64,000 nucleotides of DNA. Source: an uncultured cyanobacterium (GTDB lineage Bacteria; Cyanobacteriota; Cyanobacteriia; PCC-6307; Cyanobiaceae). A program made the position numbers and the translations under genes. Shown here piece by piece: positions 23,238 to 49,537 of the stretch. The stretch covers positions 160,001-224,000 of the forward strand of contig CAVXWZ010000002.1 in assembly GCA_963765575.1 (NCBI GenBank), read 5' to 3'. The notes under the pieces are model-generated. The model was not told the origin of the DNA. It saw only the letters and a list, made by a program, of their open reading frames with translations, and made no database searches. Within the stretch, counting starts at the first letter, position 1. Each line of letters starts with the position of its first letter.

Positions 23238-24581
23238 TTAATTGGTGAAGATGCGATAGATGGAGGCGGCGTTGAGCACCGGACCCAGGGGGGTCACGGC
23301 CTGCAACAGGAAGTCGTTGAAGCGGGTCCAGCCGTTGCGGGGCACCACCACCATGTCGCCGTTGTGCAGGGAGGGATTGGCCGGCGAATCCAGCGGTGCC
23401 GAGGGGTCAAAGATCACGCTGCGCACACTCACCTCACCGCTGGGTTCCACCCGGATCAGGCGGATCTCCTTGGTATTGGCCCGCAGCGGATCCACATCCC
23501 CAGCGGCGATCACAGCGGAGGCCAGCGGGCTGTTGGAGCGCACCTGGGTCAGGCCCGGCTGCACCACCTCACCCACCACCATGACGCCGATGGTGTCCGG
23601 GGCGAAGTTGGAGGCGGCCGTGCGGATCAGCACATCACTGGGCTGGGGTGTCTCTGCGCGGGCCACCCGAACCATGTCGCCGTCGTAGAGCAGGGGATTG
23701 ACGGTGCTGCGGTTGTTCATCAGCACCTCCAAGTAGTCGAAGCGGTACTCCACAGGCTGTCCACCGGGCACGGCGCTGGGGCGGCTGAGCACAACCTCGG
23801 AGAGGTCGGCGATCGCGGTGATGCCACCGGCCCGCTGCACCGCATCCACCAGGGTGGGCCAGCCGGCCGTGGCGATCGTGGTTTCCGAGGCGGCCGGCCC
23901 AGCCGCCGCCAGACGGGCCGCCTCCCCACCCTGGGTGAGCGTGTAGAAACCGGGCCGCTGCACCTCGCCCAGCAGGGTCACGCGCACCGGACGCGGTGCC
24001 AACAGATCGAGGTACACGAGCGGGTTGCGCAGGAAACGGTCGTAGCCCTCGGTGATGCGTTGACGCGCCTCGTCCATGGTCAGCCCCCAGACGGGCACGG
24101 CGCCCAGCCGGGGCAGGTTGACCGTGCCGTCGGCCAGCACCTCAACCACCGCCTCGTAGCCCTTCACCATGAACACGGACATGGTCAGTCGATCCCCCGG
24201 GCCGAGGCGATAGCGAAAGCCCCTGCTGCCGGGATCAATGCTGACCACGTTTGGCTGGCGCAGGGCCTGGGGCGCCGCTGGGGCGCTGCCCAGGGGAGAG
24301 CGCTTGCGGGTTTCTGCCCCCCTGGCGGCCGGCTGGGTGTCGGTGGCGGCAGGAATGGATTCGGCGGCGGCGGGAATCGGATCGCCGGGAGCCTGATCGG
24401 GGATCGGGAAGGCCTCGGGCTGGTTGGCGCCCTGGGCCAGGGTGCGGGGCGGCGCCCCCAGGGCCGTCACCAGCGCTCCGACGGGCAGCAGGCTCAGGGG
24501 GGTGAGCAGCAGGGCGGCGGCCCGGCGTCGCAGCCCGCGGCGGGCGGCTCGGTCTGCTGCGGTGAGGGGGGTAGAAGACAC
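23238..24581 (-). CDS. Outer-membrane polysaccharide export protein (OPX; Wza/KpsD-like, SLBB domains)
   Basis: YRLGPGDRL, VLADGTVNLPRLG, GEVQRPG, GEVVQPG; signal-like N-terminus and amphipathic C-terminal helix. Confidence 0.88.
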   Translation of the reverse strand: MSSTPLTAADRAARRGLRRRAAALLLTPLSLLPVGALVTALGAPPRTLAQGANQPEAFPIPDQAPGDPIPAAAESIPAATDTQPAARGAETRKRSPLGSAPAAPQALRQPNVVSIDPGSRGFRYRLGPGDRLTMSVFMVKGYEAVVEVLADGTVNLPRLGAVPVWGLTMDEARQRITEGYDRFLRNPLVYLDLLAPRPVRVTLLGEVQRPGFYTLTQGGEAARLAAAGPAASETTIATAGWPTLVDAVQRAGGITAIADLSEVVLSRPSAVPGGQPVEYRFDYLEVLMNNRSTVNPLLYDGDMVRVARAETPQPSDVLIRTAASNFAPDTIGVMVVGEVVQPGLTQVRSNSPLASAVIAAGDVDPLRANTKEIRLIRVEPSGEVSVRSVIFDPSAPLDSPANPSLHNGDMVVVPRNGWTRFNDFLLQAVTPLGPVLNAASIYRIFTN

Positions 24582-24675: not shown

Positions 24676-25644
24676 GTGAAGACGACCGACGGAAATCCGC
24701 TGAATCTCTCCGCCGCGATCGCTCTTCCCCAGGATCGGGTCCAAGCGGATCTGGCTCCCTTCCTGCTGCTGTCCTCCCAGGGCCTGGATCTCTACCTGCT
24801 GCCCGGCGAGCGCTTTGGTCCCTACGCCGAACCGGTGGGGGAGCTGCGCGAACTCACCTACCGACAGCAGCTCTCGGGCTCCGGCAAGAGCCGGGATCTG
24901 GACAGCCGCGATCCCCATTACGACCACTTCCTGCTGGTGGAGAGCAACAGTGGCGAATTGGCGGGATCGGCACGCCTGCAGTTCGTCCCCGCTCGCGCGA
25001 GCGGCGACCAATCCGCAGCGGGGTTGCCGCCCTTGCCGGGTGGGGCGCAGTCCTACCTGGAACATGTGTATCCGGGCATCAAGGCCCATCTGGCCAGCCA
25101 GGGCAACCACCTGGAGATCGGCCGTGTGGCCCTGGCGCCACGGTTTCAGCGTCAGCCCCACACCCTGATGCTGCTGTTTCGCGGCGGTCTTCAGGTGGCC
25201 GTGGGAGCCGGTTACAGCTCCATCCATGGTCTGGTCTCCTACAACCACTTCGCCTACGACGAAACGGTGAACCGGGAGTTTCTCAGCACCCTGCTGCGTC
25301 CCCCCTTCCTCGATCCCTCCAGCCCCCATCCACAGCCGCGCCATCCGGTGGCAGGTCTCGCCCCCGCGCCCAGCCCCGCTGCCGTGGCCAGCATCCAGGA
25401 ACTGGAACTGCACATCCGCCACGACCTGGACCCATCCTTCCGTCTGCCCGTGCTGCTGCGCCAGTACTTCAACCTGATGGAGGCCAGCGTGCGCAACCTC
25501 TCTCTGGCCCGGGACTTCAACCAGATCACCGAGATCCTGATGGCCGCCGATCTGCGGCGGATCCCGACCCGCCGGCTGGAACACTTCATCGACGTCGACC
25601 ATCGGCCGATCTACCGGAGTTTCAGCTGGTACCGGGGAGGATGA
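24676..25644 (+). CDS. GNAT-fold N-acyltransferase (OlsB/Acetyltransf_5-like, N-acyl amino acid synthase type)
   Basis: GELRELTYR..GSGKSRDLDSRDPHYDHFLLV, LEIGRVALAPRFQR, LPVLLRQY, DFN; resembles the N-acyltransferase domain of ornithine-lipid synthases. Confidence 0.78.
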   Translation: MKTTDGNPLNLSAAIALPQDRVQADLAPFLLLSSQGLDLYLLPGERFGPYAEPVGELRELTYRQQLSGSGKSRDLDSRDPHYDHFLLVESNSGELAGSARLQFVPARASGDQSAAGLPPLPGGAQSYLEHVYPGIKAHLASQGNHLEIGRVALAPRFQRQPHTLMLLFRGGLQVAVGAGYSSIHGLVSYNHFAYDETVNREFLSTLLRPPFLDPSSPHPQPRHPVAGLAPAPSPAAVASIQELELHIRHDLDPSFRLPVLLRQYFNLMEASVRNLSLARDFNQITEILMAADLRRIPTRRLEHFIDVDHRPIYRSFSWYRGG

Positions 25645-25701
25645 GGCCGTGCCATTGAACTGGTACGTTGCCATCCGATCAAGGCGTGGCCGAGGGACTT
25701 G

Positions 25702-26052
25702 ATGCACGCAGGCCCCGACAACGACAGCAGCGGAGCCGCGTCCCCCATTCCTGGCGCCAATCGCCAACCGAGGGCCCACGACACCGCCACTCCCGGCCGG
25801 CAGAGCCTGCAGGAGCGGCTGATCGAGATTCTGCAGCGCATCTCAGGGGCTGATCCGGAGCAGATCACCCCTGATGCCCGGCTGATCGAAGACATCGGCA
25901 TCGACTCCCTGGGCTTCTACGAAATCCTGATCGAGGCGGACGAGTGCCTGGGCATCAAGATCCGGGAAGAGGATCTGCTCGGCTTCCGCACCGTGGGGGA
26001 TGTGCAGCGGCACCTGGAGTCCCTGGAGCGGGACCATGGCCCGAACAACTGA
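25702..26052 (+). CDS. Acyl carrier protein (cluster-specific)
   Basis: ITPDARLIEDIGIDSLG phosphopantetheine-Ser motif, FRTVGDV; about 35-aa N-terminal extension, start uncertain. Confidence 0.88.
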   Translation: MHAGPDNDSSGAASPIPGANRQPRAHDTATPGRQSLQERLIEILQRISGADPEQITPDARLIEDIGIDSLGFYEILIEADECLGIKIREEDLLGFRTVGDVQRHLESLERDHGPNN

Positions 26053-27292
26053 GCGCATCGCGGTCACCGGCTGGGGGGCCATCACCCCGCTGGCCGCCGA
26101 TGCCGACGCCACCTGGGCGGCCATGGTCGCGGGCCACTCCGGCATTACGGCCCTAGACCAGGCCTGGGCCAGCGACCTGCCCGCCCGCATCGGCGGCTGC
26201 GTTGCCGAGGACATCGCCAGCGAGCTCGAACCGCTCCAGCGCCGCCGCCTGGATCGCTGCTCCCAGCTCGGCCTGCTGGCCGCGCGCCAGGCCTGGGCCC
26301 AGGCCCGACCGCAGCTGGCGGGGATCGATGCGGCCCGGGTGGCGGTGGTGATCGGCACGGGCATCGGCGGGCTGGCGACCCTGGAGCGGCAGCACCGCAA
26401 TCTGCTGGAGGCCGGCCCGAGCCGGGTCAATCCGCTCACCGTGCCGATGCTGATTCCCAATGCCGCAGCCGGCCAGATCGCCATTGACCTGGGCTTGCAT
26501 GGCGGCGCCCACACGCCGGTGTCGGCCTGCGCCTCCGGAGCGGAAGCGCTGCTGCTGGCCCAACTGCTGCTCAACGACGACCGCGCCGACGTGGTCATCG
26601 CCGGCGGCAGTGAGGCGCCCGTGAACCGGCTGGGCCTGGTGGGCTTTGCGGCCATGCGTGCCCTCTCCTGCCGCAATGGGGCCCCGGATCAGGCCTCCCG
26701 CCCCTACGGCCGCGACCGGGACGGCTTCGTGCTCTCGGAGGGGGCGGGGGCGCTGGTGTTGCAGCGGCAGAGCGACCTTGCCCCCGGCGCTCCCCAACCC
26801 CTGGGCTGGCTGCTCGCCTGCGGCAGCAGCAGCGACGGCCACCACATCGTGGCGCCGGAGCCGCAGGGGCTGCGGGCCAGCGCCGCCATGGCCGACGCCC
26901 TCAGACGGGCCGACATCGGCGTTGACGCCCTGAGCTTCGTGCAGGCCCATGCCACCGGCACGCCGCTGGGCGATCTGGCGGAGGCCCGGGCGCTGGCCCG
27001 AACCCTGGGTGCCCGCGTCGAGGACCTGCCGGTGACGGCCCCGAAGGGCCAGCTGGGCCACCTGCTCGGAGCCGCCGGAGCCGTGGAGACGATCCTGGTG
27101 CTGCAGGCCCTGCGCCAGGGCCTTGTGCCCCGCAGTGTCAACGCCGACCCCCTCGACCCGGCGATCGCGCTGGCGGTGGTACAGGACGGTCCACTCCGGC
27201 TGCCGGGCGGTGCCGACGGCGGCGAGCGCTACGCCCTCAAGAACGCCTTCGGTTTCGGCGGCCACAACATCAGCCTGGTGCTGGCGGCCTGA
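26036..27292 (+). CDS. fabF: Beta-ketoacyl-ACP synthase II (FabF-like, cluster-specific)
   Basis: Cys-His-His triad: SACASG, QAHATGT, KGQLGHLLGAAG; NAFGFGGHN; overlaps the ACP stop. Confidence 0.9.
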   Translation: MARTTERIAVTGWGAITPLAADADATWAAMVAGHSGITALDQAWASDLPARIGGCVAEDIASELEPLQRRRLDRCSQLGLLAARQAWAQARPQLAGIDAARVAVVIGTGIGGLATLERQHRNLLEAGPSRVNPLTVPMLIPNAAAGQIAIDLGLHGGAHTPVSACASGAEALLLAQLLLNDDRADVVIAGGSEAPVNRLGLVGFAAMRALSCRNGAPDQASRPYGRDRDGFVLSEGAGALVLQRQSDLAPGAPQPLGWLLACGSSSDGHHIVAPEPQGLRASAAMADALRRADIGVDALSFVQAHATGTPLGDLAEARALARTLGARVEDLPVTAPKGQLGHLLGAAGAVETILVLQALRQGLVPRSVNADPLDPAIALAVVQDGPLRLPGGADGGERYALKNAFGFGGHNISLVLAA

Positions 27293-29312
27293 GGGCGGGG
27301 CCGGCGTAGTGGGCCTGAACGGCCTGCACGAAGGCGCGGCGGTCGCCCGGCTGCTCCTGGATCTGCAGCTCCCGGGCGCGGCCCCGGCGGCAGTGGATCG
27401 TGGCCAGGGGGGCCGTGAGCCGGGAGAGCAGCAACCGCAGCGGCCGATAGAGGTCGCTGGCCGAAGTGGAAAGCCCGTAGTAGCTGAAGGTCCAGGGCAC
27501 GATCAGGGCTCCATGCTTGCGGGCCAGGATCAGGGCGCTGGCGGAAACCCGCTCGCTGATCGGCGTCACCAGGGAGCCATTGGGGGCCAGCATCACCTGG
27601 CCACGCTGGGCCAGCGTGCGCGACGCCCCGTACACGGCCGAGGTGCGCGAGCGGCCATCGCGATGGTCCATCAGGCCATGGCCGGCATTCGCCGCCGAGG
27701 CCGCGAACCAGGGCATGATCCGGCTCAGGTGCAGGCTGGCGGTGGTGATGCTGGGGAGCCGCAGCACCCCCTGAACCACCAGCACATCGGCGGGGTGCTC
27801 GTGGTTCCAGATGTGCACCAGGGGAAGGCCCTCGGGCTCGCTGGGATGGCTGTCATCCACCACCACGCTGATGCCCAGGGCCCGCAGTCCCACCAGGGCC
27901 GTGGCGACGAGCAAGCGGGCGGCCAGCCGGCGGCAGCCCAGAGCCAGCGCCAGCAGTTGCAGCCCGTAGACCAGGAAATAGGAGACCCCCCAGAAGGATC
28001 GGGCCAGCACCCGCAGCGGCAGCAGCAGGCGGTTGTCCCGGGCCGCTTGGCCGGGGGCGGGAAGCTGCGGGCGCGGTGACAGCCGGCGGGCCTCCGGTCC
28101 AATGGGGAAGGTGGTGCGGAAGGGGAAGTCGCCGTCGAAATTGCCGTTCACCTGCGTGGTGGTCACCAGGTGGTCGTAGAAGCGGTAAAAGAGCGGCCGG
28201 TCGCTGGTATGGGGTTCGCGCCAGAACTGATCCAGGGGCTGCTGATCGGTGAGACCGGGGAGGTTGTAGAAGGTCTGGCCCATCACCTTGGTGGGTACCG
28301 CGTGATAAAGGGCCTGCAGTCCCACGGAGCTGTTGACGGTCACCACGCCGCGACAGGTGCGCAGGAAGCGGCTGAGGGCACCGTCATGGAAGTAGTGCAC
28401 CCGGCCCGCCAGCCCATGGCGATGGGCCAACAACTGGATCAGCCGTCCGTAGTGGTTGTAGCCCCGGTCGCGGGGGTGGTGCTTGAAGGCGAGGTGGTCG
28501 GAGGCATGGGCATGGCGGGCAAAGGAGGTGATCACGTCTTCGATGAAGTCGTGCATTCCCCGGTAGGGCGAACCCAGCTGCACCTGGGAATCACTCGACA
28601 CCTGCAACACCACCAGAAAGAACGAGAGGTGCTCCAGCAGGCGCTGTTTCAGGGTGCGCTGCTGCCAGCGATAGAGCCAGTAGCGCCAGTTGCCGCGCAG
28701 CTGGCACCAGAGAAAACGCGGCGAGGGCTGCAGCTTGTGCTCACCCTCGATGATCGGGTACCGGGTGAAGGCGTGCTGGATGAAGGTGGGGGCCTTCCAG
28801 AGCTTGCGCCAGCGCCAGCCGGGATCCAGCTGGCCCTGGGGGAGCGCATCCACCGGCGGCAACTGGTGGTAGAAGTCGGCGGGCTGGTTGAGATTGGAGC
28901 GGGCATTGACCCGCTCGCGCTCAAGGGTCACGTAGTTGGGCCGGATGTAGCCGAGCTCGAACACCCAGGCCTCGATGCCGGCGCTGCGCGCCTCTTCGAT
29001 GGCCATGCGGTGGGGAATGATGAAGTCGCCATACATGAAGATGTGGCGAATTCCGCGCTCGACGATCAGCTGGCGCAGAAACGGCCGCCACTCCTCCATC
29101 GAGCCACTGAAGGGCACCCGCACCTCCCGGGGGAAGCCGAACTCATGCAGCGGGAAGCTCACCTTGGTGACGGGAATGCCGCAGCCGCGCAGGTAGCGGC
29201 AGAAGCGGGCGAAGAACAGTCCGATCGGCCCCATCAGCAGCAACACCGGCCCGTCGATCTGCACCTGAACCAACTGCACCGGAGCCGGAGCGGGGGCCCG
29301 TTCTGTGGTCAA
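27270..29312 (-). CDS. kpsS: KpsS-type (GT107) capsule protein fused to a C-terminal PlsC-like acyltransferase
   Basis: VLLLMGPIG.FF, FELGYIRPNYVTLE, LQVSSDSQ, KHHPRD, TVNSSVG, TQVNGNF; then a hydrophobic segment, WNHEHPAD (HX4D), LAPNGS, ALIVPW. Confidence 0.88.
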   Translation of the reverse strand: MTTERAPAPAPVQLVQVQIDGPVLLLMGPIGLFFARFCRYLRGCGIPVTKVSFPLHEFGFPREVRVPFSGSMEEWRPFLRQLIVERGIRHIFMYGDFIIPHRMAIEEARSAGIEAWVFELGYIRPNYVTLERERVNARSNLNQPADFYHQLPPVDALPQGQLDPGWRWRKLWKAPTFIQHAFTRYPIIEGEHKLQPSPRFLWCQLRGNWRYWLYRWQQRTLKQRLLEHLSFFLVVLQVSSDSQVQLGSPYRGMHDFIEDVITSFARHAHASDHLAFKHHPRDRGYNHYGRLIQLLAHRHGLAGRVHYFHDGALSRFLRTCRGVVTVNSSVGLQALYHAVPTKVMGQTFYNLPGLTDQQPLDQFWREPHTSDRPLFYRFYDHLVTTTQVNGNFDGDFPFRTTFPIGPEARRLSPRPQLPAPGQAARDNRLLLPLRVLARSFWGVSYFLVYGLQLLALALGCRRLAARLLVATALVGLRALGISVVVDDSHPSEPEGLPLVHIWNHEHPADVLVVQGVLRLPSITTASLHLSRIMPWFAASAANAGHGLMDHRDGRSRTSAVYGASRTLAQRGQVMLAPNGSLVTPISERVSASALILARKHGALIVPWTFSYYGLSTSASDLYRPLRLLLSRLTAPLATIHCRRGRARELQIQEQPGDRRAFVQAVQAHYAGPALRPPAPG

Positions 29313-29367
29313 CGCGGTGTCCTGCAGGGCAATGCCTGGCTCAACTCTGCCACCCCAGGCAAGGCGC

Positions 29368-31377
29368 TCAGCGCTGCCGCAGCCGCCCCCAGTGCCGGAA
29401 GATCCGCTGCCGCAGGCTCAGGGGACGGGGCGGTGCCGAGCGCCAGGCCAGCAACTCCTCGATCGCCTGCTCCGGCTCGATGAACAGGCCGCTATGGCGG
29501 CTCACGTACAGCGGATAGTCGATCAGGGCGGCATGGACCAGGGCATCCAGGGGCAGGGGCCGCCCCCGGCGCTCGCAGCTCAGGCGGTCGTGGCTGAGGC
29601 CCCAGCCGGCGTAGAAGGGCAAGCCCCAGGTGTGCACCTCCAGCTCCCGCAGCAGGGCCTCGAAACCGGCGATCGAGGTGAGCACGTGCAGGGCATCGAC
29701 CTGGGTGAACAATTGCTGGATCGAGGCGTCCACCAGCAGCTCGTCACACCAGTCCAGTGCCGCGTGTTCCCCCGAACCCGGCCGGCACAGCCCCGCCACC
29801 ACGTCGGGGTGGGGCTTGTAGACGAGATGGGCCGAGGGCTCGGCGGCCCGCACCGCCTGCAGCAGAGCCAGATTGGTGCGCAGCCCGGGGGCCCCCAGCC
29901 GGATTGAGGCATCGGCTTCCACCTGTCCCACCACCAGCACCACCCGGCGGGCAGCGTCCGGACGGCGCCAGGCCGGGGCCAGGAGGTTGTACTTCGTGAT
30001 CGCCTGCTCCACCAGCCGGCTGCGCAGACCCCGGGCCCGCAGCAGTTGCCTGTCGTCCCATGACCCGGTGGCCAGCAGCTGTTCGAGCTCACTGGGGGCG
30101 CTGGCGTCGTAATAGATGCCGCGCCGGTCGATCACCCAGGACATCGGATCGATCAGGTCGGCCCCAAGCCCCACCGAGCGCAGGAAGCCGTCCTCGGCGT
30201 GCAGCAGCGGCAGATCGCGGCGGCGGGCCGCCTGCAGCAGGGCGGGCTTGGCGCGCCGGCCCCACACCGCCAGCGCCTCGGCGCGGCGGCCCGGCCGCTG
30301 CCAGGGAAACCGGAACCGCAACCGGCTGCCGGCCAGGAAGCGGCGCAGCACCCGCTGTTTCCAGGGGGTGAAGCCGAAGGCCTCGATGCGCTCGGGATTG
30401 CGGCAACGGTGCCGGCGCTGCAGGCCGATCGCCGTGATCAGGTCCTCCACCGCGCAGGGCCGCTGCCGGTGGGGATCGATGTACACGGCGTAATCGACCA
30501 GGGCCGCATGGATCAGATCACCGAGCTGCCGCGGCCCCCGCCGCGCGGGCGCGGGGGCGTGGTCCCGGGTGAGTCCCCAGCCGCCATAGAAGGGCATGCC
30601 GAAGCAGTGCACCGGCCGGCCCCAGAGCAGGGCCTCAAAGCCCAGCTGGGAGGTGACCACATACACCGCCTCAGCCCGCTCGAGCAGGGCCGCGGGGTGG
30701 CCGCCGCTGGCCTCGAGCTTGATGCGCGGATGCCGCAACTGGCGGGCCTGGAAATGGCCGCGCTTGCGGCCGCGGACCACATCCGGATGGGTCTTGACGA
30801 CCACCGTGCGCTGCGGATGGTCGGCCAGGGCGGCGGCGAGCATGGCGGCGAAGCTGCCGCGATCGGCCCCACCCAGGCCGATCGAGAGGTCACCGGCCGT
30901 CTGATCGACCACCAGCACGAAGGGCTCGGCCGGCGCCGCCGCCTCGCGGCTGCCGTTGTACTTGCTCACCCGCTGCTGGCACCACAGGCGGCGGATGGCG
31001 GCGGCCCGCAGCAACTGGGCCGGGCTGTGGGCGGCAGCGATCAGGCGCTCCAGGCGGGAGGGGGCGGCGGCGGCGTAATAGATGCCGGCGTCATCGATCA
31101 CCAGGCCCAGGGGCACGCTGTCGGGCCCCAGGCCCAGGGAACGCAGAAAGGCGTCTTCACAGCGCCAGAGCGGCAGCTTGCGCCGCCGTGCCAGCCGCTC
31201 GGCCCGGCGGGCGCTGGGCTTGTGGCCCCAGGCCAGCAGGGCATCGAGCTCGGCGCCGGCGCAGCGGGCCGCCCCGCTCACCAGGTGGTGGTCGGCCAGC
31301 AGCGCCGCCAGGGTGCTGTGGCGCAGCATGCCGGCGGCCGGCAGCCCCAGACGGGCCGCGGGGAGAGGAGAGGCCAA
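29368..31377 (-). CDS. kpsC: Capsule biosynthesis protein KpsC (two GT107 domains)
   Basis: Duplicated EDAFLRS/EDGFLRS, GIYY, SKYN/TKYN, QTAGD/QVEAD, KTHPD/KPHPD, PFYGGWG/PFYAGWG. Confidence 0.93.
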
Positions 31378-31441
31378 GGGCGTGGAGGCGCCTGCAGGCG
31401 GGGCGCCTGGCTGGAGCGGGGCTCAGGTTACCGACCGCGCC

Positions 31442-31744
31442 ATGGCTGCTACGTTCAGCCCCACCGCTGCCGGGGACACGGCCAAGGTGCTGATCGACAG
31501 CTTCATGGACTCCTCCATCGACCGGCTCTGCGCGGCGGTCGCTGAAGAGGTGGGCATGCCCGTGGGGCGGGTCCGCCGGGTGGTGCTGGCCCTCCAGCGC
31601 CAGCGGCAGCGCTCCATGGCCGGCATCGCGGCGGCGAGCGCCGCGGCTCCCGGTCTGGAGGCCGCTGCGCCCGATGATCCCCTGCGCTGGTATCCGCTCG
31701 GGGCCAATGGCCGGCTGCGTCCCCCCGGGCCGGATCAGCCATGA
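31442..31744 (+). CDS. Hypothetical protein (100 aa), first gene of the neuA operon
   Basis: ATG 31442; ATGA overlap with neuA. Confidence 0.6.
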   Translation: MAATFSPTAAGDTAKVLIDSFMDSSIDRLCAAVAEEVGMPVGRVRRVVLALQRQRQRSMAGIAAASAAAPGLEAAAPDDPLRWYPLGANGRLRPPGPDQP

Positions 31745-32493
31745 GCAGCCCCGGCGCCGCGGCCGCCATCGATTCCGACCTGCCGGCCCTGGCCCTGATC
31801 CCGGCACGGGGCGGCTCCAAGGGCGTGCCGGGCAAGAACCTCCGCAGCGTGGGGGATGTCGCTCTGCTCGCCCGTACGGTGCGTGCCAGCAGAGCGGCCC
31901 ACAGCATCGGTCCCGTGTGGGTGAGCAGCGACGACACGGCCATCGGCGCCCTCGCCGAGCGTGAAGGGGCCGGCTGGTTGCGGCGACCAGCCGACCTGGC
32001 CGGGGACAGGGCCTCCTCGGAGCAGGCCCTGCTGCACGCCCTGCACGCCCTGGCCCAGCGGGGACCCCTGCCCGGGCTGTTCGTGTTTCTGCAGTGCACC
32101 TCGCCGTTCACCCGCCCGGAGCACATCGATGCGGTGGTGGAACAGTTGCAGGCCAGCGACGCCGCCATGGCGTTCAGCGTTGTGCCATGGCACGGTTTCC
32201 TCTGGGGTCGCGATGGCAGCGGCCACGGCGTGGGGGTGAACCACGATCCCAGCCTGCCGCGCCCGCGCCGCCAGGATCTCCCCCCGACCTACCTGGAGAC
32301 CGGGGCGATCTACGCCATCCGCATGGGGCCCTTTCTCGAGCAGGGCACACGCTTCGTGCTGCCCACCCTGCCGGTGCCGATCGACGCTCCCGCACCGGAG
32401 ATCGACAGCGCCGAGGATCTCGCCCTCTGCCGACAGCTGGCCCCCCTGCTGGATCGGCCCCTGGCCGGAACCAGCGTGGAGATCACCCCTTGA
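31741..32493 (+). CDS. neuA: CMP-nonulosonate synthetase (acylneuraminate cytidylyltransferase)
   Basis: IPARGGSKGVPGKN, VSSDD, LQCTSP, RRQD, ETGAIY, EIDSAED; no C-terminal HAD domain. Confidence 0.92.
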   Translation: MSSPGAAAAIDSDLPALALIPARGGSKGVPGKNLRSVGDVALLARTVRASRAAHSIGPVWVSSDDTAIGALAEREGAGWLRRPADLAGDRASSEQALLHALHALAQRGPLPGLFVFLQCTSPFTRPEHIDAVVEQLQASDAAMAFSVVPWHGFLWGRDGSGHGVGVNHDPSLPRPRRQDLPPTYLETGAIYAIRMGPFLEQGTRFVLPTLPVPIDAPAPEIDSAEDLALCRQLAPLLDRPLAGTSVEITP

Positions 32494-33779
32494 GCTGCCT
32501 GCAGGGAAAACACGTCGCCGCCCTGGCCTGCTTCGATTCGTTCGGCAAGACGGCCATGAACCTTCTGCATGTGGCGCGGCGGGAGGGTGCCGAGACCACC
32601 CTGCACCTGATGGAGCTGCCGGGTCGCAAGCTGTCCCGCCGCCAGGTGCTGGAGATCCGCCGCATCGCCCCGCGCACAGTGGTGCGTCAGCACCTGTGGG
32701 ATCAGCTGCGCAGTCTGCGCAGCGAGCTGGCCTCGCTCGACGCCCTGGTGCTCGGCCTTGATGGGCGACGCACCCGGGAGACCCTGCTGCTGCTGCAATC
32801 GGAGTGGGCCGGTGAGCCGCGGCGGCCCGTGCTGGTGAGTGCCTACCCCGGCATCCTCTTCCGCCATCAGCTCGAGGGGATGATGGACCGCTCCGGCGTG
32901 GATCTGCTCTGCCTCAACGCCGACGTGGACGGGCAGCTCTACCAGCGCGGCTGTGGGGCCCTGGGACTCGATGGCGGCAACGCCCTGGTGACCGGCCTGC
33001 CGATCCTGTGGTCGCTGAAGCCGCGGCAGACGGCCCCTGAGCAGGGCCCGATCGTGTTCTTCGAGCAACCCTCGGTGCCGGACAACCCGATCCAACGCAA
33101 ATACCTCTGCCGCCGCCTCGCGGATCTGGCCCGGGCCTGGCCGGAGCAGCCGGTGATCTTCAAGCCCCGCACCTCCAGCGTGGAGGCCACCCTGCACCGT
33201 CACCACGGCGAGATGACCCGCCGGGTGGCCAAGATCAGCCGCAAACTCACCAACCTGCGGATCAGCCACAAGCCCAGCCTGGCGCTTCTGCAGCGCTGCG
33301 CCTGTGCCATCACCGTGTCCTCCACCGCCGCCATGGAGGCCATGGCCCTGGGGGTGAGCACCCGCATCGTCACCGACCTGGGGGTCAACGAGTCCCTCGG
33401 CAACCACTACTTTCTCGGCTCCGGAGCCCTGGCCGACTTCGACGCCATCGTGCGCGACCCCTTCACCCCCCGCCACGACGGAGACTGGCTGCACGCTCAC
33501 GGCTACTGCCGCGAGGGCGCGGAGCGCTTCGTGGCGGCCCTGACCGCCAGGCTGGAGCAGCCGCCGGTCCCCGGCGGCCAGGCCCGGCCTGGCCCTCCCG
33601 GCTGGGGCAGTGAGGCCTGGCAGGCCTACGCCCTGGCCCGGGGCGGACGGCGCATGCTCAGTTCGGCCGGCGCCCGCTCCCGCCAGGGGGCCAGCCACCG
33701 CGGCCGCGATCTGCTGCGCCGCATCCGCGAGCAACTGGTGGGGATGTGGGGGATGGAACGGCTGCTCAAGGGGCGATGA
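32490..33779 (+). CDS. DUF6716-type putative glycosyltransferase (paralog 1)
   Basis: SAYPGI, DLLCLN, TGLP, FFEQPSVP, IFKPR, TVSSTAAMEA, DLGV..LGNHYFLGSG; TTG start overlaps the neuA stop. Confidence 0.8.
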   Translation: MSCLQGKHVAALACFDSFGKTAMNLLHVARREGAETTLHLMELPGRKLSRRQVLEIRRIAPRTVVRQHLWDQLRSLRSELASLDALVLGLDGRRTRETLLLLQSEWAGEPRRPVLVSAYPGILFRHQLEGMMDRSGVDLLCLNADVDGQLYQRGCGALGLDGGNALVTGLPILWSLKPRQTAPEQGPIVFFEQPSVPDNPIQRKYLCRRLADLARAWPEQPVIFKPRTSSVEATLHRHHGEMTRRVAKISRKLTNLRISHKPSLALLQRCACAITVSSTAAMEAMALGVSTRIVTDLGVNESLGNHYFLGSGALADFDAIVRDPFTPRHDGDWLHAHGYCREGAERFVAALTARLEQPPVPGGQARPGPPGWGSEAWQAYALARGGRRMLSSAGARSRQGASHRGRDLLRRIREQLVGMWGMERLLKGR

Positions 33780-34840
33780 GGCTGGCCCTGATCAGTGATT
33801 CCGTGGCCGCCCTGCAGGCCAGCTGCCGCCTGGCGCGGCTGTTGGAAGCGGCTGGGATCGGCGTGACCCGGATCGTCTCGCCGGCTCTGCAGGCGCAGCT
33901 GCAGGGCCCCTCACCCGCCAACGCCAATGCCAACGCCGAGGCTGTACTCGTGCTGGAGCCACTCGGCCTCGCCAGCAGCGAGCTGATGGACCACTTCGAT
34001 GGGGCGGGGGTGTTCCTGGCACCCGAGCTGCTGCAGCCCTTCCGGAACGCCTACCGGCGGGCGGCCCAGCTGCGTGGCCGCCCCCCCCGGCCCCTGTTCA
34101 CCGGGCCGTTGCTGCCGCTGGTGGGCGATGGGCTGAGCGAGGATCTGTTGCCCCGGCTGGGCTACGACCTGATCTGCCTGCACGGACAGACGCAGGTGGA
34201 GGAGCTGGGCTGGCTGATCCAGGGCACGGCGCACGCCGCCCAGGTCCACGCCGCCATCGGCCTCTGGAGTGTGGCCACCGCACCGATCGGTCTGGCTGTC
34301 AGTGAGCAGCCGCAGGTGCTCATCCTTGAGCAGCAGGAGATCCCTGCGGGGGCCCGGGAGACGGCCCTGCTCTATCGCCGGTTCAAGGGCCTGGCCCTGG
34401 CGTCTCCGGACTGGATCGTGCGCCTGCAGCCCGACCAGCCGCTGCCGAGCGATCCCGAGCTGTGGAGTGAGGCGACGTTCGCCTGGCAGTACCACCAGGA
34501 CGGCGCCCGGCCCGCCAACCTCCAGCTGGGGCGGCATGACGACCTGCCCCTCAGCCTGATGCAGGCCTGGGCCTGCCTGGGGATCAGCTCGAGCTGGCTG
34601 CTGAGCGCCATGGTGTGGGAGAAGCCCACAGCGGTGCTGGGGGATTACGGCATCCGCACCGAGTTCGGCGGTCCCCTGTTCTTCGGTTCCGGCACGATGC
34701 GCCGGCTGGCGGACTGTCAGCCGTTGGAGCAGCTGCTCAAGGTGCCAGCGGCCAATCCCGGCTGGCTGGCCGACCTGGGCTGGGCGATTGACGATGGACC
34801 GCAACGGCTGCGCCGAGAGCTGGAGGCGCTGGCCCGATGA
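33776..34840 (+). CDS. DUF6716-type putative glycosyltransferase (paralog 2, divergent)
   Basis: RLALISDS, RLGYDLICLHG, ILEQQEIP, GDYGIRTEFGGPLFFGSG; ATGA coupled on both sides. Confidence 0.75.
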   Translation: MRLALISDSVAALQASCRLARLLEAAGIGVTRIVSPALQAQLQGPSPANANANAEAVLVLEPLGLASSELMDHFDGAGVFLAPELLQPFRNAYRRAAQLRGRPPRPLFTGPLLPLVGDGLSEDLLPRLGYDLICLHGQTQVEELGWLIQGTAHAAQVHAAIGLWSVATAPIGLAVSEQPQVLILEQQEIPAGARETALLYRRFKGLALASPDWIVRLQPDQPLPSDPELWSEATFAWQYHQDGARPANLQLGRHDDLPLSLMQAWACLGISSSWLLSAMVWEKPTAVLGDYGIRTEFGGPLFFGSGTMRRLADCQPLEQLLKVPAANPGWLADLGWAIDDGPQRLRRELEALAR

Positions 34841-36148
34841 CCCTGTCGTTGCTGCTGGTGGCCGACAGCGACAGCCAGTTGCTGGCCTGCCAGGCGCTGG
34901 CGCGCTGCGCCGATGGGCACCGGGCCCGGGTGACCGTGAACGCGGTGCCACGGGAGGGCACCCCCGCCGCGGTGCTGGAGGCGCTGCAGAGCGATCGGGC
35001 ATGTGCGGCAGCAGCCTCTGCGGCAACTGCTGGCCGACAACCGTCTGGATGACTTCGATGCCATCGGGGTGTACCTCACCGGCAGCAAGCTGGCGGAGTT
35101 CCGCAGCGTGTACCTCACCAGCCGCCGACAGCAGCAGCGGCCGCCGCGGCCCCTCTTCTGCGGCTTCAACGGTGTGGTGCTGCAGCGCTTCGAGGAGGCG
35201 ATCGCCTGGCGGCTGGGCTACGACCTGATCTGTCTCAATGGCCCCCGCGACCAGGCCCGGCTGGAGCTGATGCTGCGGCACACGCCCTTTGCGGGCCAGC
35301 GCTCTGTGCTCACCGGCCTGGGCCGCCAACAGGGCGGCGGGAGCGGCCTTGAGCGCGCCAAACGGATGGTGTTCGCCGAGCAGGTGGTGATGCCGGCTGA
35401 CGGGGACGAGCGCCGCCGGCTGGTGCGGATCCTGGCGGCCCTGGCCCGCCGCTCTCCCGATTGGGAGCTGCTGATCAAACCCCGGGTTGCCCCCCATGAG
35501 AGCACCTTCCACGCGGTGGGCACCCACATCAGCGACACCTTGGTGGAGACCCTGGGCAGCCCTCCCGCCAACCTGCGGCTCAGCTACGCGCCGCTGGCGG
35601 ATCTGCTGCCCAGCAGCCGCCTGCTGGCCACGGTGTCGTCCACCGCCGTCTTTGACGCCCTCGACCTGGGCTGCAGGCCTGTGGTGATGGGCGATTTCGG
35701 GCTGCGTCAGGATCTCGGCAGCCCGTTCTTCGCCGGCTCCGGGCTGCTGCGCAGTTTTGAGCAGGCCGCCGACCTCGACAGCCTCGCCTCCGGCTTGTCG
35801 CCCAACCCCGACTGGCTGGAGTGGGTGGGCTACCACCCCCGCTTCACACCCGACAACCTGCTCGATGCCTTGCAGGAGCTGGCGGACCAGCCCCGGCGGC
35901 CGGCGCCTGAACTGCAGCATCCGGGCTACACGATCAACGCCGCCGAGCTGGCCACCAACCAGCTGCGTCGGGCGGCAGAAGCCGCCATGCGCCGCGCAGA
36001 TCCCAACGAGGCGATCCGCCTGCTGGAGATCGCCCAGCTGCAGCGGCCCGACAATCGCAACATCGCCCGGCGCCTGGCAGCCATGCGCCTCACCAACCCG
36101 ATCGCACGCCGGCTGGCCCTGCTGGTGACGCCAGGCTTTCGGCCGTAG
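34837..36148 (+). pseudogene. DUF6716-type glycosyltransferase (paralog 3) with a +1 frameshift near 35000, probably a sequence error
   Basis: LLVADSDSQ in frame 34837; GFNGVV, RLGYDLICLNG, FAEQVVMP, IKPR, TVSSTAVFDA, FFAGSG in frame 35003; short TPR-like helical C-terminus. Confidence 0.78.
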
Positions 36149-36183
36149 ATTCAGCCCACCAAGACAAGTCAGGCGGAGAGTCG

Positions 36184-38469
36184 GTGCAAGCGGTACAGAT
36201 CGAGCGCAACTTCACCCAGTTCGTCGTCTTCGCTGAAGACTCGATCCTCTCCGCCCTCAACAAGATCACGGCCAACAAGTCGCGGCTGATCTTCGTGGTC
36301 TCGGAAGGCGGCATCCTGCAGGGGGTGCTCAGCGACGGCGATTTCCGGCGCTGGATCGGCGGCAGCGATGTGATCGACCTGGGCCGGCCGGTGACCGCGG
36401 CCATGAACCCCACCTGCGTCTCCGCCTGCGATGGCACTCCCGGCGCCGAGCTGGCGGACCTCTTCTCGCAGAAGATCCAGGTGATCCCGCTGCTCGACGA
36501 CCACGGGCGGGTGGTGGCCGTGGCCCGCGCCGCCAAGCGCCAGCTGCAGCTGGCCGGCCGCCCGATCGGAGAGGGCGCGGCCGCCTTCGTGATCGCCGAG
36601 ATCGGCAACAACCACAACGGCCGTGTCGATCTCGCCCTGCGGCTGATCGATGCCGCCGCCGCCGCCGGCGCCGACTGCGCCAAGTTCCAGATGCGCGACA
36701 TGGGGCGCCTCTACGTGAACGCGGGCGACAGCAACGACATGGCCTCCGACCTGGGCACCCAGTACACGCTGGACCTGCTGGAGCGCTTCCAGCTCAGCGA
36801 CGACGAACTGTTCCGCTGCTTCGAGCACACCAGGGCGCGGGGCCTGATCCCGCTCTGCACCCCCTGGGACGAGACCAGCCTGGAGAAACTCGACCGCTGG
36901 GGCATGGCCGGCTTCAAGGTGGCGTCAGCGGACTTAACCAACCACGGCCTGCTCAGCGCCATCGCCGCCACCGGCAAGCCGCTGATCGCCTCCACCGGCA
37001 TGGCCACCGAACAGGAGATCGCCTCCGGCATCCGCCACCTGCGCCGACAGGGAGCCTCCTTCGTGCTGTTGCACTGCAACTCCACCTATCCCACGCCCTT
37101 CAAGGACGTGAACCTGCGCTATCTGCCGCGGCTGGCGGAACTGGCCGAGGGGCCGGTGGGCTACTCGGGCCATGAACGGGGCTTTGCCGTGCCGATCGCG
37201 GCCGTGGCCCTCGGCGCGGCCGTGGTGGAGAAGCACATCACCCTCGACCGCACCATGGAGGGCAACGACCACAAGGTGAGCCTGCTGCCCGAGGAGTTCC
37301 AGGCGATGGTGGCCGGCATCCGGGCGGTGGAGGAGTCGATGGGCTCGGAGGCCGCCCGCAGCATCAGCCAGGGGGAGCTGATGAACCGGGAGGTGCTGGC
37401 CAAGAGCCTGGTGGCGGCCTGCCCGATCGCGGCCGGCACCCCGGTGACCCGCGAGATGGTGCGCATCCAGAGCCCGGGCCAGGGCCTGCAGCCCTACCGG
37501 CTCAACGACCTGCTGGGCCGCTCCCTGAGTGGCAGCAAGGGCGAGGGCGAGTTCTTCTTCGAGTCTGATCTGCATCGGCCCGCAGCCTTGCCCCGGCCCT
37601 ACCGCTTCGCCAACCGCTTCGGCGTGCCGGTGCGTTACCACGACCTGGCCAGTTTCTCCGGCGCCAGCAACCTCGACCTGGTGGAGATCCACCTCAGCTA
37701 CAAGGATGTGGAGGTGGACATCGACGCGGTGCTGCCCCCGCAGGTGCCCATGGGCCTGGTGGTGCATGCGCCGGAGCTGTTCGCCGGCGACCACACCCTG
37801 GATCTCTGCAGCCTCGATGCCGACTACCGCTGCCATTCGGTGGCCGAACTGCAGCGGGTGATCGACCTCTCCGCCCGCCTGCGCCGTCGCTTCAACTGCC
37901 CCGAGCCGGTGCAGCTGGTGACCAACGTGGGCGGTTTCTCCAGCCAGCGCCACCTGGGCCCCGGGGAGCGGGGGGCACTGCTGGAGCAGCTGGTGCAGAG
38001 CCTGCGTCAGCTGCACGGCGACGAGGTGGAGATCATTCCCCAGACCATGCCGCCCTTCCCCTGGCACTTCGGGGGCCAGCGCTTCCACAACCTGTTCGTG
38101 GACGCCGAGACGATCGAGGCCTTCTGCCGCAGCCAGGCCATGCGGGTGTGCCTGGATGTGTCCCATTCCAAGCTCGCCTGCAACCACCTGCACGAACCCT
38201 TCTCCGTCTTCCTGGAGCGGATCCTGCCGTTCACCGCCCACCTGCACCTGGCCGATGCGGCCGGCGTGGACGGTGAAGGTCTGCAGATCGACGAGGGCGA
38301 AGTGGACTGGGCCAGCGTGTTCCGCCTGCTCGATCAGCTGGCTCCGCGGGCCTCCTTCATCCCCGAGATCTGGCAGGGCCACAAGAACAACGGAGAGGGG
38401 GCCTGGCTGGCGCTGGAGCGGCTGGAGCACCACCAGCTTGCGCAGCAGCGCACCCCGGTCGCTGCATGA
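36184..38469 (+). CDS. neuB: Nonulosonic acid synthase (NeuB family) with N-terminal CBS pair, SAF domain and C-terminal AP-endonuclease-2/sugar-isomerase TIM barrel
   Basis: GVLSDGDFRR (CBS); IAEIGNNHNG, AKFQ, KVASAD, STGM, LHCNSTYP, GYSGH, EKHITLD; KSLVAA..SPGQG; CLDVSH, HLHLADA, PEIW. Confidence 0.92.
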   Translation: MQAVQIERNFTQFVVFAEDSILSALNKITANKSRLIFVVSEGGILQGVLSDGDFRRWIGGSDVIDLGRPVTAAMNPTCVSACDGTPGAELADLFSQKIQVIPLLDDHGRVVAVARAAKRQLQLAGRPIGEGAAAFVIAEIGNNHNGRVDLALRLIDAAAAAGADCAKFQMRDMGRLYVNAGDSNDMASDLGTQYTLDLLERFQLSDDELFRCFEHTRARGLIPLCTPWDETSLEKLDRWGMAGFKVASADLTNHGLLSAIAATGKPLIASTGMATEQEIASGIRHLRRQGASFVLLHCNSTYPTPFKDVNLRYLPRLAELAEGPVGYSGHERGFAVPIAAVALGAAVVEKHITLDRTMEGNDHKVSLLPEEFQAMVAGIRAVEESMGSEAARSISQGELMNREVLAKSLVAACPIAAGTPVTREMVRIQSPGQGLQPYRLNDLLGRSLSGSKGEGEFFFESDLHRPAALPRPYRFANRFGVPVRYHDLASFSGASNLDLVEIHLSYKDVEVDIDAVLPPQVPMGLVVHAPELFAGDHTLDLCSLDADYRCHSVAELQRVIDLSARLRRRFNCPEPVQLVTNVGGFSSQRHLGPGERGALLEQLVQSLRQLHGDEVEIIPQTMPPFPWHFGGQRFHNLFVDAETIEAFCRSQAMRVCLDVSHSKLACNHLHEPFSVFLERILPFTAHLHLADAAGVDGEGLQIDEGEVDWASVFRLLDQLAPRASFIPEIWQGHKNNGEGAWLALERLEHHQLAQQRTPVAA

Positions 38470-39247
38470 TGGCCGCCGACAGCGAGCGATCGGCTTTGGG
38501 CCAGCACTTCATCCTGTTCGAGCGCCTTCCGTTGATCTACGGACGGGTGCCGAAGGTGGCCAACTCCTCGGTGAAGGCGGCGCTCACCCGCCTGCTGGAT
38601 GAGCCGCCGGAGGAGGGCTGGCGTACGACCGCCGATGCCTTCTGGCGGGAGGGAACCCACGGGGAAACCAACCTGATCGATGCCGAGGCCGCCAGCCGGC
38701 GCCGCGCCACCCATCTGATTTTCAGCTTTGTGCGCAACCCCTTCGACCGGCTGGTGTCGGCCTACAACAACAAACTGATCGAGATCGAGCACCATCCCTG
38801 GCGCCATGGAGCGGATGGGGCTGGAGCAGCCACATGCCCTTCGAGCGCTTTCTGGAGGTGGTGGCCCGCACCACCGATGCCGATCTGGACGTGCACCTGC
38901 TGCCCCAGAGCTCGATCCTCTGTCGCGAGGGCGTGCCCGTGCCCGGCTTCATCGGCAAGCTGGAGGCGATGACCGACCATTGGCGGGCCCTGCGCCGCCG
39001 GCTGCGCCAGTGGGGACTGCCCGCCCTGGGCCGGCTGCCCGCCAAGAACGTGCGCCGGGGCGGCGACACCGACCTGAGTGGCTATTTTCATAGCCCGCGC
39101 CTGATCGAGCTGGCCCTGGAGCGCTATCGCCAGGACGTGGAGCTCTTCTACCCGGACCAGCCCGTCGCCGATCTGGCGCAGGGCCGGCTCACCCAGGCGC
39201 CTGCCGTGTGGGAGCGCTGCAGCGAGCCGGTGGGATCCCTGGCGTAG
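38466..39247 (+). pseudogene. Sulfotransfer_2-family sulfotransferase with two +1 frameshifts (about 38800 and 38833), probably sequence errors
   Basis: RVPKVANSSVK, FSFVRNPFDRLVSAY / MERMGL / MPFERFL..DVHLLPQ..FIGKLE..RYRQDVELF in three successive frames. Confidence 0.8.
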
Positions 39248-39276
39248 CATCCGCAACAAAGTCGACACTGTTCGCT

Positions 39277-40107
39277 TTGGGCCTCAACCGCCGCCTGCGC
39301 AAGGAAATCGAGGCGGGACTGAAGGGCGAGCACCAGCAGGAGGTGGACCATCACCGGCGGGTCCTGCCCAACTTCATCATCATCGGCGCGGCCAAGTCGG
39401 CCACCACCACCCTCACCACAATCCTGCCCCGCCACCCGGAGTTCTTCATCAGCAAGCCCAAGGAGCCGAAGTTCTTCGGGCGTCGCTACGACAAGGGCTG
39501 GAGCTGGTACGCGCGCCTGTTCCGGCAAGGTCGGGCCTATCCCCTGCGGGGCGAGGGCAGCACGATGTACGCCAGTGCCCTGAACAGCTTCCAGCACGCC
39601 CCGGCACTGATGCATCGCTACCTGCCCAAGTTGAAGCTGGTGTATGTGGTGCGCCATCCCCTGGATCGCATCGAGTCCCAGTGGCGCCACCGCATGGGGC
39701 GCAAGCGGGGCACGCCCCGCTTCGAGGCCCTGCTGCGCTCCCGCCATCTGCGCAGGCTGGTGGTGGGCTGTTCGCTGTACCACGAGCGACTGGAGAGCTT
39801 CCGGGCGTTCTACCCCGATCACCAGATTCACTGCCTCACCTTCGAGGATCTGGTGAATCAGCCCCAGGCCACGCTCCAGGAGCTGCTGGAGTTCCTGGGA
39901 GCCTCCAGCAGCCCAGAGCACGTGGAGCTGTTGTTGGATGAGGGGGGACTGCCCCGGGTCAATGAGGCCGGGGACAAGGGCCGCAAACTGATCCAGCCTC
40001 CTGTGTGGCCGGCAAAGTTGCGCAGTCAGGTGGCGGAGCTGCTGCGACCCGACGCCGAGCGCATGCTGGCCTACATGAACAAGCCCCCGGGCACCTGGGT
40101 GCTCTGA
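39277..40107 (+). CDS. PAPS-dependent sulfotransferase
   Basis: FIIIGAAKSATTTL (5'-PSB), KEPKFF, VVRHPLDRIES (3'-PB); start uncertain (TTG 39277). Confidence 0.88.
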   Translation: MGLNRRLRKEIEAGLKGEHQQEVDHHRRVLPNFIIIGAAKSATTTLTTILPRHPEFFISKPKEPKFFGRRYDKGWSWYARLFRQGRAYPLRGEGSTMYASALNSFQHAPALMHRYLPKLKLVYVVRHPLDRIESQWRHRMGRKRGTPRFEALLRSRHLRRLVVGCSLYHERLESFRAFYPDHQIHCLTFEDLVNQPQATLQELLEFLGASSSPEHVELLLDEGGLPRVNEAGDKGRKLIQPPVWPAKLRSQVAELLRPDAERMLAYMNKPPGTWVL

Positions 40108-48387: not shown

Positions 48388-48398
48388 GGGCGGGGGGC

Positions 48399-49505: not shown

Positions 49506-49537
49506 CGCAGCCTGGCGGGAGGGCGGCACTGAACTGC

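Follow-up and report, generated by a model that had tools for sequence, protein, structure and literature searches.

The analysed stretch of DNA (64,000 bp, hereafter the window; positions are counted from its first letter) belongs to a Cyanobium-like picocyanobacterium and carries one end of an ABC-type (Kps) capsule locus (Table 1). The initial annotation had called genes for a GNAT N-acyltransferase, an acyl carrier protein (ACP), a FabF, a KpsS with an acyltransferase domain and a KpsC, all of which were found where it had located them, as was a 23-bp overlap, in which fabF and kpsS meet at their 3' ends. The OPX gene that it described as upstream of the GNAT gene does adjoin the latter but lies on the minus strand, divergent from it, so that the locus has three directions of transcription and is not one operon. 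The likely start of FabF2 is the ATG at 26036, kpsE, kpsM and kpsT lie 2–6 kb past the window end, and a promoter scan returned nothing exceeding chance.

Table 1. Features of the capsule locus within the window
Feature	Position	Strand	Evidence or content
kpsD/OPX outer-membrane polysaccharide export protein	23238..24581	-	PF02563, SLBB; divergent from GNAT
OlsB/OlsF-type GNAT, putative acyl-ACP-dependent N-acyltransferase	24676..25644	+	PF13444, OlsF C-half
Locus-specific acyl carrier protein (accessory)	25699..26052	+	PF00550; DSL motif
Locus-specific FabF2 ketoacyl synthase (accessory)	26036..27292	+	PF00109/PF02801
KpsS+PlsC fusion, whole gene	27270..29312	-	PF05159 at aa 91-392, PF01553 at aa 493-609
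KpsS C-terminal PlsC-family acyltransferase domain	27270..28040	-	PF01553; NHEHPAD
KpsS N-terminal priming beta-Kdo transferase domain	28041..29312	-	PF05159, NF050054
KpsC two-domain beta-Kdo polymerase	29368..31377	-	phmmer to 6mgc/6mgd
Variable repeat-unit region	31741..38469	+	NeuA-like cytidylyltransferase, three DUF6716 glycosyltransferases, CBS-NeuB synthase (nonulosonic acid)

As in the group 2/3 Kps systems of E. coli, KpsS, KpsC, KpsMT, KpsE and KpsD are all present, here in one locus of ~47 kb; unlike in those systems, KpsS forms one protein with a PlsC-family domain, and its gene is linked to those of an N-acyltransferase, an ACP and a FabF. KpsS of the E. coli prototype primes on phosphatidylglycerol (PG; PMC8760489, PMC13721041), and the reviews consulted place the KpsS/KpsC linker on PG only, with the Vi antigen as the sole known exception. 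The latter ends in a diacyl-HexNAc, its reducing-end HexNAc being acylated by VexE (PMC8760489), and so offers a known case of a capsule that leaves through an ABC exporter, is anchored on something other than PG and has its own acyltransferase; Vi loci are devoid of kpsSC, whereas the window locus retains them. The locus is a member of Syn-eCAG_008, or 'Kps cluster', of marine Synechococcus (PMC10119275, supplement file 5; PMC7522525), with which it shares the order kpsD, acyl-CoA N-acyltransferase, ACP, fabF2, kpsS, kpsC, neuA ... neuB (PMC10119275). The accessible portions of these two papers give annotations and ecology, including enrichment of the capsule locus in N- and P-depleted waters (PMC10119275), and mention neither a PlsC fusion nor a role in anchoring. 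The gene cluster was already in print; the anchor chemistry, of which the initial annotation knew no description, did not appear in those portions.

KpsC aligned to solved KpsC structures (phmmer, 6mgc, E = 4e-67; 6mgd, E = 1.5e-64), and each of its two domains shows QxxxD and HP motifs. The KpsS domain scored above the cut-off of PF05159 and reached 275 bits (E = 8e-82) against NF050054, below the cut-off of 600; its ELGY, QxxxD and HP motifs were invariant in 117/117 homologues, and its modelled fold matched KpsC/WbbB among GT-B folds. An assembly artefact as the source of the fusion is ruled out, because 117 of the 120 homologues among the matches listed were at least 600 aa long.

The PlsC domain contains two membrane helices and an NHxxPxD (HX4D) motif, with His conserved in 106/117 and Asp in 115/117 homologues, and matched TmPlsC (5kym) in a profile search (E = 2.9e-5); its ESM Atlas value was 0.98, whereas the Foldseek matches listed for the whole KpsS–PlsC model were GT-B folds only, which did not cover this part. 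Residues corresponding to FxxR and xxEGxR are missing, DH and P[NS]GSL standing in their place: His replaces the motif II Arg in 105/117 domains and P[NS]GSL replaces xEGxR in 106/117. The Lys, Arg, acid and Arg are kept in TmPlsC and in the housekeeping PlsC of the same genome, and we take the basic residues (motif II Arg, motif III EGxR) to be functionally important. The Glu was likewise present in 0/59 OlsF-sized proteins, the acceptor of which carries no phosphate. The HX4D acyltransferase domain ascribed to KpsS therefore stands for this locus and most homologues and fails for four loci, which have no intact PlsC domain and in which a search for a replacement found none. In three genomes of one genus GNAT, ACP, FabF and KpsS were kept next to a decayed PlsC domain that retains the hydrophobic helices and has lost HX4D, and one genome (G232) has no PlsC domain. 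Seven loci carry a stand-alone PlsC duplicate with intact NHxxPLD; in three of these the fused copy has lost its His and the intact duplicate adjoins it.

The GNAT domain was assigned by PF13444 (E = 1.9e-11, 45 bits versus a cut-off of 22.4). Alignment to positions 278–569 of the NCBIfam OlsF model gave E = 6.6e-12 and 44.8 bits, far below the equivalog cut-off of 620, and the protein is a stand-alone GNAT rather than a PlsC–GNAT fusion; its nearest relatives outside picocyanobacteria are mostly the C-terminal halves of ~580–620-aa proteins. A sequence search against PDB returned no matches. The structure model (pLDDT 91) had TofI, LasI and FeeM as top folds (Z = 12.8–13.4), tied with generic GNATs, so that the fold match cannot tell acyl-ACP amide synthases from the latter. 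The combination of a PF13444 N-acyltransferase with a PF01553 O-acyltransferase is shared with OlsB+OlsA, OlsF and GlsB/GluB. The locus differs from these in having the O-acyltransferase and a Kdo transferase on one polypeptide and, usually, an ACP of its own, OlsBA using AcpP (PMC12971839). The same paper describes OlsB+OlsA products as free membrane lipids and OL-type lipids as not identified in cyanobacteria. The fused O-acyltransferase shows weak similarity to the N-halves of OlsF-type proteins (21 bits at best). A split OlsF, with the fused PlsC domain as its N-half, was not supported (the profile scored no higher than 21 bits on 81 long GNAT matches, and NH-x4-D occurred in 0/68).

Besides the locus copies, the genome encodes a housekeeping acpP-fabF pair (C2:581773-583265), to which the locus ACP and FabF are 25% and 37% identical, respectively; the two FabF proteins are also widely separated in the tree. 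Cys/His/His motifs were intact in all 22 aligned FabF copies (21 of locus type plus the housekeeping one). ACP was present in 42/46 loci, ACP/FabF were missing from 4/46, and no second FabF occurred in those four genomes. ACP and FabF, proposed as members of the pathway, are accessory by this count.

Co-occurrence was surveyed in 201 genomes of the family, and 46 loci were fetched for their neighbourhood. Locus-type kpsS and GNAT occurred in the same 42/201 genomes, always within 2.8 kb, a figure to be read with the caveat that island genes co-travel whatever their function and that related genomes are not independent. These genomes span 10 of 36 genera with a patchy distribution inside genera, and the linkage holds down to ~35% GNAT identity. 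Co-occurrence and synteny had been set beforehand as a refutation test, and the two genes were adjacent in 42/42 genomes, which rules out a chance neighbourhood; the adjacency withstands inversion of kpsC, loss of ACP/FabF and exchange of repeat-unit genes. Three genomes (G000, G134 and G241) hold a single PF13444 gene each, adjoining kpsS, and GNAT without kpsS was found in none of the 201 apart from one weak match (G090, E = 4.4e-4). OPX adjoined GNAT directly, or with one GT4 gene between, in 44/46 loci. A search of 286 cyanobacterial genomes outside the family did not find kpsS. There were also three weak PF05159 matches (G180, G216 and G217); follow-up of these and of the G090 match by tblastn of L140 gave nothing.

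A cluster of kdsA, kdsB and kpsF, for putative CMP-Kdo supply, lies outside the capsule locus (C2:542-546 kb). In the window's own assembly kdsA is frameshifted. It was found in 41/42 GNAT+kpsS genomes; leaving aside the window's own, 40 of 41 gave one match of full length, and a search of G004 gave none. Of the same 41 genomes, 29 yielded DUF6716; the remaining 12 did not and still kept GNAT, which suggests that GNAT follows the conserved core and not the repeat unit.

A second arrangement was seen in two genomes of one genus (G227 and G596; 2/401 genomes, plus one metagenome contig 79% identical) and is absent from the window's own genome. Here kpsC, ACP, FabF, OPX and kpsMTE are retained, with FabF nested within the locus-specific clade, and genes for Spt-like, ceramide-synthase-like (bCerS-like) and reductase (SDR) proteins replace GNAT and kpsS. 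The ceramide-synthase-like protein (373 aa) aligned end to end with YghO of E. coli (23%, E = 1e-29), named in PMC9386255 as an orthologue of ceramide N-acyltransferase; its assignment draws on full-length YghO/aca homology and Spt linkage, identity being only 23–27%. An Spt-like neighbour was present in 45/80 metagenome loci of this protein's family. The Spt-like protein had Spt as its best PDB match and BioF as its best-scoring NCBIfam model, with all scores under cut-off, and its gene is a second copy besides a putative bioF. Spt-like, YghO/bCerS-family, SDR and ACP genes together recall the bacterial ceramide pathway (Spt, bCerS, CerR, AcpR), from which the set differs in lying inside a cyanobacterial capsule locus and in having FabF2 rather than an acyl-ACP synthetase. 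A comparable run of PKS, alpha-oxoamine synthase, SDR, sulfatase-family gene and kpsS occurs in a Rhizobium locus (L125), which is set apart from G227 by its PKS, of type I, and its sulfatase-family protein; the G227 query gave no bCerS-like gene in the Rhizobium genome, and no OlsB-type GNAT was found in the fetched stretch. Lipid genes are also part of the rhizobial rkp-1 and Burkholderia wcb loci. Since G227 and G596 have no kpsS, their priming step must differ. The swap of modules strengthens the case for a slot dedicated to the anchor: exchange for ceramide genes in two related genomes suggests a capsule on a purpose-made amide lipid instead of the usual phospholipid.

Taken as a whole, we put at roughly 55% the probability that this Kps locus of group 2/3 type, of which the window shows the conserved end, makes its own amide-linked, non-PG lipid anchor. 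Of the anchor pathway first proposed, the GNAT/kpsS linkage, the retention of GNAT on change of repeat unit and the ceramide-type swap speak for it; ACP/FabF proved not to belong to the core, and four loci lack an intact PlsC domain. ACP2/FabF2, where present, would supply a special acyl-ACP, and housekeeping acyl-ACP would serve elsewhere; GNAT would N-acylate a small hydroxylated amine (candidates are serine, serinol or an amino sugar); the membrane-bound PlsC domain would attach a second chain as an O-ester, before or after the KpsS step; the fused KpsS domain would prime a free hydroxyl with beta-Kdo; and KpsC would lengthen the linker, the glycan coming from the variable region genes and export being by KpsMT/E/D. 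Ornithine is an unlikely head group, as ornithine lipid offers no hydroxyl for Kdo transfer. In G227/G596 the Spt-like, bCerS-like and SDR set would provide ceramide for the same role. In the literature searched, largely outside subscription journals, we found no proposal that a KpsS/KpsC capsule is anchored by an aminolipid or a ceramide.

The anchor could still be PG, as in E. coli, with the PlsC domain re-acylating lyso-PG, perhaps with a special ACP2/FabF2 chain, and mainly holding KpsS at the membrane through its two helices. Cyanobacteria make PG, the KpsS/KpsC motifs are conventional, and the three decayed copies that keep helices without HX4D indicate that the catalytic part can be lost. 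We nevertheless consider this unlikely, as it leaves unexplained both a GNAT accompanying kpsS in 42/42 genomes and the Spt/bCerS swap, and the PlsC domain is without the basic residues of housekeeping PlsC; domain and linkage evidence points away from a PG acceptor. Rather improbable is a free outer-membrane aminolipid (free ceramide in G227/G596), made by GNAT and PlsC and co-selected with the capsule without covalent attachment: the enzyme pair mirrors OlsB+OlsA and the locus is enriched in nutrient-depleted waters, but fusion to a priming Kdo transferase is given no reason, and GNAT without kpsS is confined to the weak G090 match. That the acyltransferases decorate the polysaccharide or Kdo linker (by N-acylating an amino or nonulosonic sugar and by O-acylation in the manner of VexE on Vi) after priming on another acceptor, as the adjoining NeuA/NeuB and DUF6716 genes and the VexE precedent might suggest, is very unlikely, given that GNAT persists in the 12 genomes without a DUF6716 match.

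Returning to the amide-lipid anchor, a purpose-built lipid of this kind would be a third capsule anchor chemistry after PG and the Vi type, and Kdo-linked capsules could do without PG. Tentatively, and at somewhat less than even odds, picocyanobacterial Kps loci may carry an exchangeable anchor module, mostly for an N,O-diacyl phosphorus-free aminolipid (OlsB-type GNAT plus KpsS-fused acyltransferase) and in a few cases for ceramide. Some cyanobacteria would then make sphingolipids, as the Spt/bCerS variant indicates; this variant also suggests a possible role for the lipid genes of rhizobial K-antigen loci, and rkp/wcb-type lipid genes would be anchor synthases as well. OlsB-like genes of cyanobacteria, where no aminolipid has been identified, would gain a testable role. 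Both locus variants are represented in cultured Cyanobium and Synechococcus isolates, which makes the idea open to direct lipidomics, and the hosts are phototrophs of high abundance, with capsule genes enriched in waters where N and P are scarce.

In a picocyanobacterial genome (2.7 Mb, 69% GC; names of homologues indicate Cyanobium), the window (C2:160001–224000) holds one end of a capsule locus that is ABC-transporter-dependent and complete: core genes are followed 3′ by genes for NeuA, three DUF6716 glycosyltransferases, CBS-NeuB (a xylose-isomerase-like fusion) and sulfotransferases (31741–40107), and kpsE, kpsM and kpsT close the locus 2–6 kb beyond the window. Every gene named in the initial annotation was recovered by Pfam and NCBIfam scans, and the convergent fabF and kpsS indeed share 23 bp. 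The locus ACP and FabF (ACP2/FabF2), with intact active-site motifs, were 25% and 37% identical to the housekeeping pair elsewhere in the genome, representing extra copies.

Core genes of the capsule locus and ceramide-type modules in two related genomes
Feature	Location	Strand	Source
OPX	23238–24581	minus	Pfam/NCBIfam scans
GNAT, PF13444	24676–25644		Pfam/NCBIfam scans
ACP	25699–26052		Pfam/NCBIfam scans
FabF	26036–27292		Pfam/NCBIfam scans
KpsS, 680 aa, C-terminal PF01553 domain	27270–29312	minus	Pfam/NCBIfam scans
KpsC, two-domain	29368–31377	minus	Pfam/NCBIfam scans
Spt-like, YghO/bCerS-like and SDR genes with ACP + FabF, in Kps locus	L137:10992–15788 (G227)		
Spt-like, YghO/bCerS-like and SDR genes with ACP + FabF, in Kps locus	L144:9883–14671 (G596)		

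The capsule is probably of a sulfated nonulosonic-acid type, possibly Kdn. CDP-glucose pathway genes (rfbF/rfbG/rfbC-like by motif) and a C-methyltransferase-like gene lie in the variable region (46588–50311). Upstream of kpsC, a 94-aa ORF (31423–31707) gave no Pfam match and has homologues in several close relatives (46–58% identity). Apparent frameshifts at 34837–35052/35003 (third DUF6716), 38466/38834 and 40005/40747 (affecting a sulfotransferase and a further ORF), and in kdsA (C2:543610–544399, same contig), are probably assembly indel errors; the five core genes are free of them. Elsewhere (contig C11:127249–133003), a waaA-like Kdo transferase gene with acyltransferase, lpxB-like and ABC-transporter genes suggests Kdo-containing lipid A.

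We favour, at a probability of 0.55, a dedicated aminolipid capsule anchor. The GNAT would N-acylate a hydroxylated amine, with ACP2/FabF2 tuning the acyl chain; at the membrane, the PlsC domain would supply an O-acyl chain, KpsS fused to it would attach the first β-Kdo and KpsC would lengthen the linker. Kdo transfer requires a hydroxyl, which makes ornithine an improbable head group. The GNAT weakly matched the C-terminal half of OlsF (NCBIfam), and its closest relatives outside picocyanobacteria were mostly C-terminal halves of 580–620-aa proteins. Its structure model (pLDDT 91) aligned best with TofI, LasI and FeeM, which make amides from acyl-ACP, with generic GNATs scoring within 1 Z unit of these.

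The KpsS-PlsC fusion is real, as 117 of 120 homologues among those listed were at least 600 aa long. Two helices are predicted in the fused domain, which carries an HX4D motif and can be aligned with T. maritima PlsC. At the positions where that enzyme and the housekeeping PlsC of this genome show Lys, Arg, an acid and Arg, the fused domain has TTAxLHL, LDH and P[NS]GSL. These basic residues of PlsC bind the phosphate of lysophosphatidic acid. This pattern fits a phosphate-free acceptor, short of proof; the Glu is also missing in OlsF-sized proteins (0/59). Stand-alone PlsC-domain duplicates with intact motifs were found in seven marine loci (in tandem, marine Synechococcus: L067:8759–9568, L068:11148–11966, L069:9076–9846, L096, L098, L099, L103), three of which have lost the fused copy's His, suggesting selection on acyltransferase activity. 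An intact copy was present in 42 of 46 loci. Against such selection, the domain is decayed in G095, G118 and G061 (one genus) and absent from G232, and no replacement was found in these four. In G232, the short KpsS (L063:9066–12779) adjoins an alpha/beta-hydrolase-like gene and a cytochrome P450, with no kpsC found there.

According to PMC8760489 and PMC13721041, KpsS and KpsC build oligo-Kdo on phosphatidylglycerol (PG), with the diacyl-HexNAc of Vi antigen described as the single known variation; that remodelled PG is the anchor here appears unlikely.

Of 201 family genomes taken in a single draw, 42 matched the KpsS fusion (10 of 36 genera, patchy inside several), and the same 42 carried the GNAT on the same contig, 86–2750 bp away; G090 had a weak GNAT match, and 158 genomes had neither. 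Less probable again than remodelled PG is an aminolipid that stays free and is under joint selection with the capsule. No match was returned by a KpsS profile search of 286 cyanobacterial genomes outside the family, and PMC4594306 describes a confined cyanobacterial distribution of KpsS/C. The predicted five-gene co-occurrence held for GNAT with kpsS (42/42) and failed for ACP/FabF in four of 46 fetched loci (36 of the 41 other GNAT+KpsS genomes plus 10 more; two short contigs excluded), the pair being present in 42. GNAT and kpsS are immediate, facing neighbours in G241, G134, G121 and G137, where a search found no second FabF. kdsA was detected in 41 of the 42 genomes. Acyl decoration of the glycan is the least likely alternative: of the 41 other genomes retaining the GNAT, 12 yielded no match to the DUF6716 repeat-unit gene, so the GNAT goes with the conserved core.

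A PF05159 profile search marked 46 of the 201 genomes, namely the 42, three weak matches and G227; with G596, found later, the G227 variant amounts to 2 of 401 genomes. Both share a genus with G134 and G241 and retain kpsC, ACP, FabF, a GT4, OPX and kpsM/T/E; neither PF13444 GNAT nor kpsS was found in them. Their kpsC-to-ACP interval holds three other genes (alpha-oxoamine synthase, SDR, 373-aa GNAT), an arrangement repeated in one further metagenome contig (L166, 79% identity). The alpha-oxoamine synthase, additional to a putative bioF, has serine palmitoyltransferase (Spt) as best PDB match, and the 373-aa GNAT aligns end-to-end with E. coli YghO (23%, E 1e-29). PMC9386255 gives yghO as orthologue of the Caulobacter ceramide N-acyltransferase (pathway sources: PMC11334938, PMC11087976, PMC9393093). 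Among 80 metagenome loci with a member of the 373-aa GNAT's family, 45 have an Spt-like neighbour, and both annotated homologue regions examined resemble sphingolipid clusters. The locus flanks are picocyanobacterial, the FabF nests among locus-specific copies in the tree, and KpsC lacks the QxxxD/HP motifs in its N-terminal domain. Judged by homology, the three loci possibly encode cyanobacterial ceramide synthesis. A further KpsC-like gene in G227, with one domain, follows a GT4 (L138:5027–10656) and is divergent from a fatty-acid/sphingolipid-type desaturase (weak sphingolipid-desaturase match), another GT4 and kpsF; G596 has a counterpart, also behind a GT4 (L157). This protein may stand in for KpsS in priming. 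The strongest new argument, from very few genomes, is that homologous capsule loci have, at one and the same position, either of two unrelated modules predicted to make an N-acyl lipid, which suggests that this position encodes the anchor.

PMC12971839 has OlsBA relying on housekeeping AcpP and ornithine lipids not identified in cyanobacteria. A Rhizobium locus (L125, fetched with a KpsS query) resembles the Spt/SDR variant of G227 in combining PKS, oxoamine synthase, SDR and sulfatase-family genes with kpsS. The feature is real and conserved, and the cluster is already catalogued: eCAG 8 of PMC10119275 lists kpsD, an acyl-CoA N-acyltransferase, ACP, fabF2, kpsS and kpsC (14 of 20 Syn_GI125 rows, supplement file 5) and is enriched in N- and P-depleted waters; a Kps cluster mentioned in PMC7522525 may bear on the locus. 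A literature search, with most subscription papers outside its reach, found no proposal of an aminolipid or ceramide anchor for a KpsS/KpsC capsule. Within that literature, the anchor chemistry of the catalogued cluster is unstudied, and it is directly testable. The capsule system is a variant form of the known Kps type.
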